NCBI GenBank assembly: GCA_002423155.1
Contig: DIUV01000048.1
Location: 517-64,516 of the forward strand
From: Alphaproteobacteria bacterium UBA6149
GTDB taxonomy: Bacteria; Pseudomonadota; Alphaproteobacteria; Rickettsiales; UBA998
Length of the DNA stretch: 64,000 nt
Direction: 5' to 3'
Positions 56,945-57,528 of the stretch are shown one piece after another; within the stretch, counting starts at the first letter, position 1, and every line of letters begins with the position of its first letter. Position numbers and translations under genes: made by a program. Below the pieces are notes generated by a model. It searched no databases. It was not told where the DNA came from and was given only the letters and a program-made list of their open reading frames with translations.

Positions 56945-57055
56945 CGCTCTCTCCGTTGTCATACCGCCGCAGGGCGGTATCCATGTCTAACCGCGCAGAC
57001 GGAGCTTGGTGATAAACATGGATACCGCCCTGCGGCGGTATGACAACGGATGTTT
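56945..57055. repeat. hairpin repeat, upstream flank of the GIY-YIG gene
   Basis: CTCTCTCCGTTGTCATACCGCCGCAGGGCGGTATCCATGTCTAACCGCGCAGACGGAGCTTGGTGATAAACATGGATACCGCCCTGCGGCGGTATGACAACGGATG. Confidence 0.9.
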
Positions 57056-57116
57056 TGGTTTAAAATAAATTAATTATTTTTAGTAATCTATTTTAGGATA
57101 AACACTGAGAGTTGGT

Positions 57117-57407
57117 ATGAAAAAAGGCTATGTCTATGTAATGACCAATAAGAAGTTTGGTACTTTATATATAGGCGTAACTAGTGATTTAATAAAACGA
57201 ATTTGGGAACATAAAGAAAAAAATACAGAAGGTTTTACAAAGAAATATAATCTTAATCGCTTGGTTTATTATGAAATTCACGAAAATATAGAATCTGCTA
57301 TTTATCGTGAAAAACAAATGAAAGAGTGGAATAGAAATTGGAAACTAAGGCAAATCATAGATTTCAATCCAGAATGGAAAGATTTATATGATGATATTAT
57401 TGGTTAA
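57117..57407 (+). CDS. small GIY-YIG (URI-domain, COG2827-type) nuclease family protein
   Basis: 96 aa with GYVYVMTNKKFGTLYIGVTSDLIKRIWEHK...GFTKKYNLNRLVYYE...AIYREKQMKEWNR..K...I...NPEW.DL. Confidence 0.85.
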   Translation: MKKGYVYVMTNKKFGTLYIGVTSDLIKRIWEHKEKNTEGFTKKYNLNRLVYYEIHENIESAIYREKQMKEWNRNWKLRQIIDFNPEWKDLYDDIIG

Positions 57408-57413
57408 TTAACG

Positions 57414-57528
57414 CACTCTCGGTTGTCATACCGCCGTAGGGCGGTATCCATGCCTAACCGCGCAGACGGAGCTTGGTGATAAACATGGATACCGCCCTGC
57501 GGCGGTATGACAACGGATGGTTTAAGGC
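57414..57528. repeat. hairpin repeat, downstream flank of the GIY-YIG gene (direct copy of 56945-57055)
   Basis: It has the same loop, CTAACCGCGCAGACGGAGCTTGGTGATAAAC, in the same orientation. It differs from the upstream copy at about 5 positions and begins about 7 nt after the stop codon. Confidence 0.9.

Follow-up and report, generated by a model that had tools for sequence, protein, structure and literature searches.

Locus and features

The stretch analysed here, 64 kb of contig DIUV01000048.1 from the uncultured alphaproteobacterium UBA6149 (hereafter the window), carries between iscU and iscA a gene for a 96-residue GIY-YIG nuclease bracketed by two hairpin repeats in the same orientation (Table 1). 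An initial annotation, made from the sequence, had predicted the gene at this place, and its identity is established by the open reading frame (ORF) and a match to Pfam PF01541 (GIY-YIG, E=1.4e-14, residues 3-76). We interpret the unit at 56937-57523 as very probably an Ssn/SRM cassette, that is, an Ssn-family nuclease gene (ssn) together with its cognate hairpins, acquired as a foreign insertion between the two isc genes. The initial annotation had considered the pairing of nuclease and hairpin to be undescribed; this was wrong because the Ssn family and the SRM repeats, with their analogy to RAYT/REP/BIME, were defined by Chenal et al. (Nat Commun 2025, PMC11893778). Since the pairing is published, the locus adds an example and not a discovery.

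The starting point of that study was the Neisseria dRS3/NTS repeat CGTCATTCCCGCGMAVGCGGGAATCYRG, and ssnA, a 94-residue single-domain GIY-YIG gene (CDD cd10448), was the sole gene tied to the motif across bacteria. An SRM was found near 71% of ssn homologues and on both sides in 42%, and of the genomes exceeding 200 SRMs, 81% encoded a homologue. Binding of the motif by SsnA is confined to single-stranded DNA (ssDNA) and to one orientation; the enzyme cuts a few nucleotides upstream of it, and does not act on double-stranded DNA (dsDNA) or RNA; the mutants Y6A, Y17A and E64A retain binding while cleavage is abolished. In Neisseria meningitidis, SsnA lowers transformation by NTS-bearing DNA. 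An NTS-ssnA-NTS architecture was also reported, was likened to IS200/IS605 and RAYT/REP/BIME, and domestication was proposed (all PMC11893778).

Each of the two hairpins beside ssn (copies L and R) is composed of two SRMs arranged head-to-head, and the gene is thus flanked by two SRMs on each side. The hairpin arms are 34-38 nt long and 94-97% complementary; folded as ssDNA, L reaches -49.7 kcal/mol (z = -14.6) and R -41.5 kcal/mol (z = -9.3) relative to shuffled controls. The same orientation of the two copies, as annotated initially, was confirmed for direct repeats of ∼116-120 nt, whereas the count of about five differences between them was not: 6 differences were counted over the first 116 nt, none of them beyond nt 50, and L and R agree fully over the following 66 nt (P=0.006). 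L and R were also said to have in common a loop that the other copies in the window lack, and CTAACCGCGCAGACGGAGCTTGGTGATAAAC does have just two occurrences in the window, at 56987 and 57454. No match to this loop, nor to the 60-nt AT-rich spacer that separates L from ssn, was found anywhere in 200+ loci from relatives.

The hairpins belong to a family that is dispersed in the window. The SRM search motif of Chenal et al. (2025), HGTCWYN(0-2)YYVSBRHN(0-5)WNVSBRGN(0-2)RNCYNB, has 12 matches in the 64 kb against 0.11 expected from dinucleotide shuffles of the window alone, and the core of the arm occurs 11 times at ≤3 mismatches against 0 in 100 shuffles. All 12 SRMs have the form (T/C)GTC-AT(A/G/C)CCGC(C/T)-G(C/T)AG-...-CCAT and make up 6 head-to-head dimers, four of which are solo hairpins whose loops differ from CTAACCGCGCAGACGGAGCTTGGTGATAAAC and are more self-complementary. 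An isolated arm folds as ssDNA into an 8-bp stem-loop of -8.6 kcal/mol. Each arm has a CGTC or TGTC tag that is unpaired, a stem of 8 bp opening with AT, a loop of 4 nt and a CCA tail, the features by which the CGTC-1 REP family was defined (Di Nocera et al., BMC Genomics 2013, PMC3733652). This predominantly alphaproteobacterial group includes Neisseria dRS3 and Rickettsia RPE-6 and consists mostly of head-to-head dimers; the location between co-oriented genes is likewise shared. The CGTC-1 family 'apparently lacks a dedicated transposase' (PMC3733652), whereas the hairpins are paired with a GIY-YIG gene both here and in Chenal et al. (2025).

Table 1. Coordinates of the ssn unit, its isc flanks and the solo hairpins of the window
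Feature	Position	Strand	Basis and remarks
Solo SRM hairpin (head-to-head dimer)	33951..34040	.	between Mur-ligase gene and methyltransferase gene
Solo SRM hairpin	40090..40179	.	between radical-SAM methylthiotransferase-like gene and TsaD-domain gene (PF00814)
Solo SRM hairpin	40915..41004	.	between TsaD-domain gene (PF00814) and ETF-QO gene
Solo SRM hairpin	53490..53579	.	between rnpA and gltX
iscU	56546..56935	+	ORF; PF01592 NifU_N; upstream flank of insertion; directly adjoins iscA in relatives
Hairpin copy L (left direct repeat)	56937..57056	+	direct and inverted repeat search; head-to-head dimer of two SRMs, 31-nt loop
SRM, left arm of hairpin L	56957..56984	+	published SRM motif; TGTC-ATACCGCC-GCAG-GGCGGTAT-CCAT; 8-bp stem, 4-nt loop, -8.6 kcal/mol
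SRM, right arm of hairpin L	57018..57045	-	published SRM motif
Spacer upstream of ssn	57057..57116	+	60 nt, AT-rich; without SRM at the canonical place ∼15 nt before the start codon
ssn-family gene	57117..57407	+	ORF; Pfam; 96-aa single-domain GIY-YIG nuclease (Y7, Y18, R28, H32, E65)
Hairpin copy R (right direct repeat)	57404..57523	+	direct repeat search, fold, alignment to L
SRM, left arm of hairpin R	57424..57451	+	published SRM motif; 16 nt past the ssn stop codon
SRM, right arm of hairpin R	57485..57512	-	canonical downstream orientation, but farther from the stop codon than usual
iscA	57547..57882	+	ORF; Fe-S_biosyn; downstream flank of insertion; alternative start TTG at 57535

The nuclease

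The ssn product is a single GIY-YIG domain that ends at residue 96, without a C-terminal DNA-binding domain. Its AlphaFold 2 model (pLDDT 93) has the GIY-YIG fold, and the nearest solved folds are the single-domain GIY-YIG proteins 1ZG2 and 1YWL, followed by Slx1 and the N-terminal domain of UvrC. No solved Ssn structure was found by a sequence search of the PDB, in which the only matches, to WD40 repeats via a KxWNRN peptide, were rejected as spurious. It is the only GIY-YIG gene in the 64-kb window (tblastn), and no recognised transposase is present in the unit, the Pfam hits of the protein being GIY-YIG and a weak match to T5orf172.

Alignment with 28 relatives revealed that Y18, R28, H32 and E65 are invariant and Y7 nearly so, and the catalytic residues, whose absence would have spoken against the hypothesis of the initial annotation, are therefore present. 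Y7, Y18 and E65 probably correspond to Y6, Y17 and E64 of N. meningitidis SsnA, a mapping that assumes a one-residue offset between the two proteins.

A contig of the same strain from another sample (L097) differs from the window at 2 of 3716 nt, at 57281 and 57332. Both differences lie inside ssn and are nonsynonymous (H55Q and N72K), a pattern that hints at selection being relaxed or diversifying, or at conversion from a further ssn copy.

Association of ssn with SRMs across relatives

The homologous loci collected comprise 80 in species-representative genomes, 80 in metagenomes and 27 in IMG/VR viral contigs, giving 179 loci after deduplication (individual loci carry labels such as L004). 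SRMs number ∼3 per kb in the 200 nt around the gene, compared with ∼0.1 per kb farther away, a 25-30-fold enrichment, and at least one SRM lies within 200 nt of the gene in 60-75% of loci per collection, in line with the published 71%, and in 3/3 of the close relatives. The geometry is fixed: the upstream SRM is on the strand of the gene, at a median of 15 nt before the start codon, and the downstream SRM is on the opposite strand, at a median of 8.5 nt past the stop codon. The left and right SRMs of one locus are more alike (0.935) than SRMs of different loci (0.833, p=4e-16), and the stems co-vary between loci (ATACCGCC/GGCGGTAT, ATCCCGCC/GGCGGGAT, ATTCCGGC/GCCGGAAT and ATACCAGC/GCTGGTAT). 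Among relatives at 55-64% identity, many have an ssn gene flanked by the Neisseria NTS consensus CGTCATTCCCGCGAAGGCGGGAATCCAG in its exact form. Both the association of homologues with the hairpin within 200 nt and the broader proposal that nuclease and hairpin family form a cognate pair, as put forward in the initial annotation, are thus borne out, the latter also by the biochemistry of family members (PMC11893778).

The closest homologues, at 76-82% identity to the window protein, are found in other organisms, of 41-57% GC, and in other operons. Together with the window they occupy five junctions: iscU/iscA (window), hisG/hisD (L002, L104), lptD/surA (L004), murD/ftsW (L014) and glyA/nrdR (L102, L103). 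In most of these loci the same arm motif is present in inverted orientation, ∼10 nt before the start codon and 11-15 nt past the stop; the downstream arm of L104 is degenerate, and L004 has a directly oriented arm closest to the stop codon, as part of a full hairpin. SRMs lie only beside the gene in the close-relative loci, with 0 distant SRMs in 21 kb.

Among the IMG/VR contigs (L182-L206), 25 encode ssn-like proteins (43-58% identity) and 17/25 have adjacent SRMs, in a viral collection that may include prophages or misclassified chromosome.

The link between gene and hairpin is not due to chance, because 12 SRM matches stand against 0.11 expected and the motif is enriched 25-30-fold beside the gene. 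That 4/6 hairpins of the window lie beside no GIY-YIG gene might be taken to favour a fortuitous juxtaposition of REP-like hairpins and an unrelated small gene; however, the enrichment and the fixed geometry over 179 loci from many phyla already refute this explanation, as does the recurrence of the pairing in loci that contain no other SRM, and its probability is negligible.

The same comparison bears on whether ssn could be a free-standing GIY-YIG homing endonuclease of the T4 Seg or I-TevI kind, which would cut the dsDNA of gene-less isc alleles and be copied in by repair, with the hairpins being incidental. Such enzymes share with ssn the GIY-YIG catalytic domain, a gene located between conserved genes and a foreign composition, and the intergenic position in a conserved operon, the low GC and a weak N-terminal match to TIGR01453, a group I intron endonuclease model (E=4e-4), would agree with this origin. 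However, the match reaches 20.4 bits against a cut-off of 56 and covers residues 3-39 only, a protein of 96 residues has no DNA-binding domain, and members of the family do not cleave dsDNA (PMC11893778). The ssn family also differs from homing endonucleases in having no conserved host target gene: since its members at many unrelated sites always keep the same SRMs, the conserved partner is the hairpin and not a host target. We therefore regard a homing endonuclease as very improbable.

Insertion into the isc operon

In relatives with an 80%-identical IscA, the gap between iscU and iscA is 0-75 nt, and neither ssn nor an SRM is found in 20 kb. The GC content of ssn is 0.27, with a GC content at third codon positions (GC3) of 0.22, compared with a GC3 of 0.39-0.48 in gltX, iscS, iscU, iscA and hscA. 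This is a general property of the family, ssn being lower in GC than its flanks in 83/84 loci (mean difference -0.108, p=2e-15). Because relatives have iscU and iscA adjacent and the GC3 of ssn is low, the 0.6-kb unit is an insertion of foreign base composition between the two genes.

The nearest IscA relatives beyond the strain are at 74-82% identity, and contigs with an identical IscA belong to the same strain; these either still have the ssn side of the junction or end within the right hairpin, and neither an empty site nor a single-hairpin polymorphism was observed among them. Contigs of this strain, recovered from three different samples, still contain the unit. Precise excision by recombination between the direct repeats, as envisaged in the initial annotation, finds no evidence here: 3/3 same-strain contigs that reach the junction keep the right hairpin, and the one that extends farther upstream keeps ssn.

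Several observations weigh against the interpretation of the unit as an Ssn/SRM cassette, or limit how far it can be taken. The usual layout is SRM(+), gene, SRM(-), with one inverted arm per side, and the window layout is accordingly an atypical variant: two full hairpins in direct orientation bracket the gene in none of the other 178 loci, the arrangement described in the initial annotation is not the typical one, and the canonical SRM(+) just before the start codon is missing, its place being taken by the 60-nt AT-rich spacer. L004, the closest relative, shares only the downstream full hairpin with the window. The Lys/Asn/Tyr/Ile-rich composition of the protein partly explains the low GC of ssn, although its GC3 is also low. 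Membership in the Ssn family is indicated by architecture, motif, conserved residues and NTS-carrying relatives, and not by direct alignment to N. meningitidis SsnA or cd10448. None of the sites tested biochemically has the SRM variant of the window (stem ATACCGCC, tail CCAT). Finally, that the protein is active on the window hairpins, and the positions at which it would cut them, we infer from homologues.

The double direct-hairpin layout is an unusual feature of this Ssn/SRM example, not seen in the other loci examined. Another non-canonical layout occurs at L159, where two consecutive SRM head-to-head hairpins (2220-2384) lie directly downstream of ssn and none upstream.

Possible mobility of the unit

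The proposal that the hairpins and the GIY-YIG gene together form a mobile cassette gained support in part: the five junctions and the occurrence of near-identical units in unrelated flanks favour it. Two contigs of one Ca. Desulfacyla euxinica metagenome-assembled genome, L038 and L065, carry (both at 4862-5378) a 517-nt ssn unit of 98.6% identity in unrelated flanks, bounded outside the SRMs by 20-23-nt outer inverted repeats (CATTACCAGTTTGTTAAAG...). A unit of 384-439 nt, at 90-96% identity, is similarly found in unrelated flanks in L082, L109 and L114, and ssn-SRM units are also present on IMG/VR contigs. The ORF of L038 does not stop where that of L065 does, and reads on through the downstream SRM. 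The literature published after 2025 yielded no demonstration of mobility for an Ssn cassette. Mobility of the cassette is plausible and is strengthened by the comparisons made here.

The unit may be, as hypothesised in the initial annotation, an analogue of a REPtron, in which SRM-ssn-SRM would be autonomously mobile, the nuclease driving its own spread and that of the solo hairpins, and the solo hairpins being non-autonomous, REPIN-like derivatives or resembling MITEs (miniature transposable elements with inverted repeats). The window unit would then have arisen by nuclease-dependent insertion at or beside a hairpin, for example through staggered cuts outside both arms followed by fill-in that duplicated the hairpin. 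This is consistent with the presence of close relatives at five junctions between co-oriented, normally adjacent housekeeping genes with SRMs only beside the gene, with the near-identical units described above, with the GC of ssn below that of its flanks, with the location of all solo hairpins of the window in short gaps between co-oriented genes, and with the private loop common to L and R, as a local duplication would produce. Of the hallmarks of an insertion sequence or MITE, the unit has inverted repeats and no recognised transposase; the 116-nt direct hairpin repeat may be the footprint of a duplication, but the differences between its copies are uneven and it is absent from all other loci.

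The chemistry of the enzyme argues against this analogy. GIY-YIG enzymes are hydrolytic and form no covalent intermediate, and to our knowledge have no strand-transfer chemistry; because hydrolysis proceeds without such an intermediate, a GIY-YIG nuclease would be unable to carry out strand transfer alone.

Other observations point in the same direction. The same-strain contigs offer no empty-site or single-hairpin polymorphism, and transposition has been shown for no Ssn (PMC11893778, discussion). Clustering of all L/R differences within the first 50 of the 116 nt is not what a single clean duplication would yield, and is better accounted for by partial gene conversion or by a composite origin. 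Because the double hairpin is present at only 1/179 loci, it is not a general signature of insertion. The REPtron analogy is thus a possibility that we put forward tentatively. A simple target-site duplication was also considered as the origin of the two hairpins, and is weakened by the restriction of the L/R differences to the left 50 nt and by the lack of this layout at every other locus.

In a more far-reaching form of this scenario, SRM-ssn-SRM units, often with outer inverted repeats, would be autonomous 0.4-0.6-kb cassettes without a transposase that enter junctions of co-transcribed housekeeping genes and spread between phyla, the solo hairpins would be their non-autonomous derivatives, and the duplicate in the window would be the footprint of staggered cuts made by Ssn at both outer margins of a hairpin already resident there. 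We consider this generalisation unlikely as it stands.

Alternatively, ssn may be a fixed gene with a domesticated host function, its nuclease using the dispersed SRMs to process ssDNA and so restrict or modulate recombination of incoming or replicating ssDNA in the vicinity of SRMs, with the flanking hairpins serving mainly as binding or regulatory sites. The ∼5-fold increase in transformation by NTS-bearing DNA upon deletion of ssnA in N. meningitidis (PMC11893778) agrees with such a role, as do the intact protein with its conserved catalytic residues and the retention of the unit in contigs of the strain from three samples. The gene is, moreover, co-oriented within the essential isc operon and would therefore be co-transcribed with it. 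On the other hand, relatives lack the gene and its GC3 is foreign, both of which speak for a recent acquisition. Strong purifying selection on ssn is not apparent either, since the only two differences in 3.7 kb between the strain variants are both nonsynonymous changes in this gene. A domesticated function is accordingly doubtful, if possible.

Surroundings of the unit

A scan of 56500-57900 returned 3 promoter-like sites against 4.4 expected in shuffles, none of them convincing before ssn. Terminator-like sites in the same interval number 3 against 1.3 expected; each of them is on the minus strand and so opposed to the isc genes, and SRM stems account for 2/3 of them.

The isc operon of the window contains further small modules. 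A TacA/TacT-type toxin-antitoxin pair (DUF1778 antitoxin and GNAT toxin) lies at 57928-58715 between iscA and hscB, with a GC3 of 0.21-0.25 that is as foreign as that of ssn, and an MNT/HepT-like toxin-antitoxin pair with a GNAT acetyltransferase is found at ∼61029-62204 between hscA and the ferredoxin gene. At the same junctions of the isc operon, other insertions occur in relatives: L099 carries a retropepsin-like gene, and L101 has a 23S-rRNA-IVP-family (PF05635) gene between iscS and iscU. In L014, where ssn lies between murD and ftsW, the mraY-murD junction of the same dcw operon holds an MNT/HepT pair and the murG-murC junction a HicAB pair (sites 1946-2571 and 7120-7724). It seems that small selfish modules accumulate at operon junctions in these bacteria.

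Other inverted repeats of the window are unrelated to the SRM family. They comprise a GGGAGAGGG-rich hairpin with 52-nt arms, 88% complementary, at 43701-43819, and a nested pair of AT-rich inverted repeats at 42701-42863; a repeat with 51-nt arms at 34099-34224 adjoins the SRM hairpin at 33951-34040.

Proposed action and relation to known systems

Hairpin binding and ssDNA cleavage have been shown in the literature for homologues, and by analogy a mode of action can be proposed for the Ssn/SRM cassette of the window. When the DNA becomes single-stranded, during replication, recombination or as incoming ssDNA, the Ssn protein would bind the SRM with its 8-bp stem and 4-nt loop in one orientation only, and would then hydrolyse the strand a few nucleotides 5' of the TGTC or CGTC tag, acting in trans on all 12 SRMs of the window. 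Because both tags face outward in a head-to-head dimer, the cuts are predicted on opposite strands, at the hairpin's outer margins. Since L and R are direct repeats, the two cut sites predicted on each strand of the unit would be 467 nt apart and enclose one hairpin together with ssn.

With the published Ssn/SRM systems the unit shares a single-domain GIY-YIG protein of ∼95 residues with the conserved Tyr, Tyr and Glu, flanking hairpins with a CGTC-type tag and an 8-bp stem, many further intergenic SRM copies, and a similar frequency of association. It differs in its SRM variant, which is common only to the closest clade, in the two complete direct head-to-head hairpins where one inverted SRM per side is the rule, and in its location inside the isc operon of an uncultured alphaproteobacterium of 42% GC, as a member of the family known from sequence alone.

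The likeness to REPtrons and the RAYT-REP-REPIN systems lies in a nuclease gene that is present in one copy between short palindromes of a kind dispersed in the genome, in the occurrence of these palindromes as hairpin doublets, and in the recognition of ssDNA hairpins. In contrast to the RAYT proteins, which are HUH/Y1 transposases related to IS200/IS605 and act through a covalent intermediate, the enzyme here is a hydrolytic GIY-YIG nuclease; the tags in the window are TGTC/CGTC and not GTAG, and the transposition activity of RAYTs has no known Ssn counterpart.

The SRM variant of this clade would be a new specificity for the ssDNA-cutting toolbox that has been proposed for Ssn enzymes. The clean insertion into the isc operon, together with the five operon junctions among close relatives and the recurrence of near-identical units within unrelated flanks, gives grounds for testing mobility directly. 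If the cassettes do prove to be autonomously mobile and the solo hairpins to derive from them, Ssn would be the missing partner of the CGTC REP superfamily and the hydrolytic-nuclease counterpart of RAYT/REPIN.

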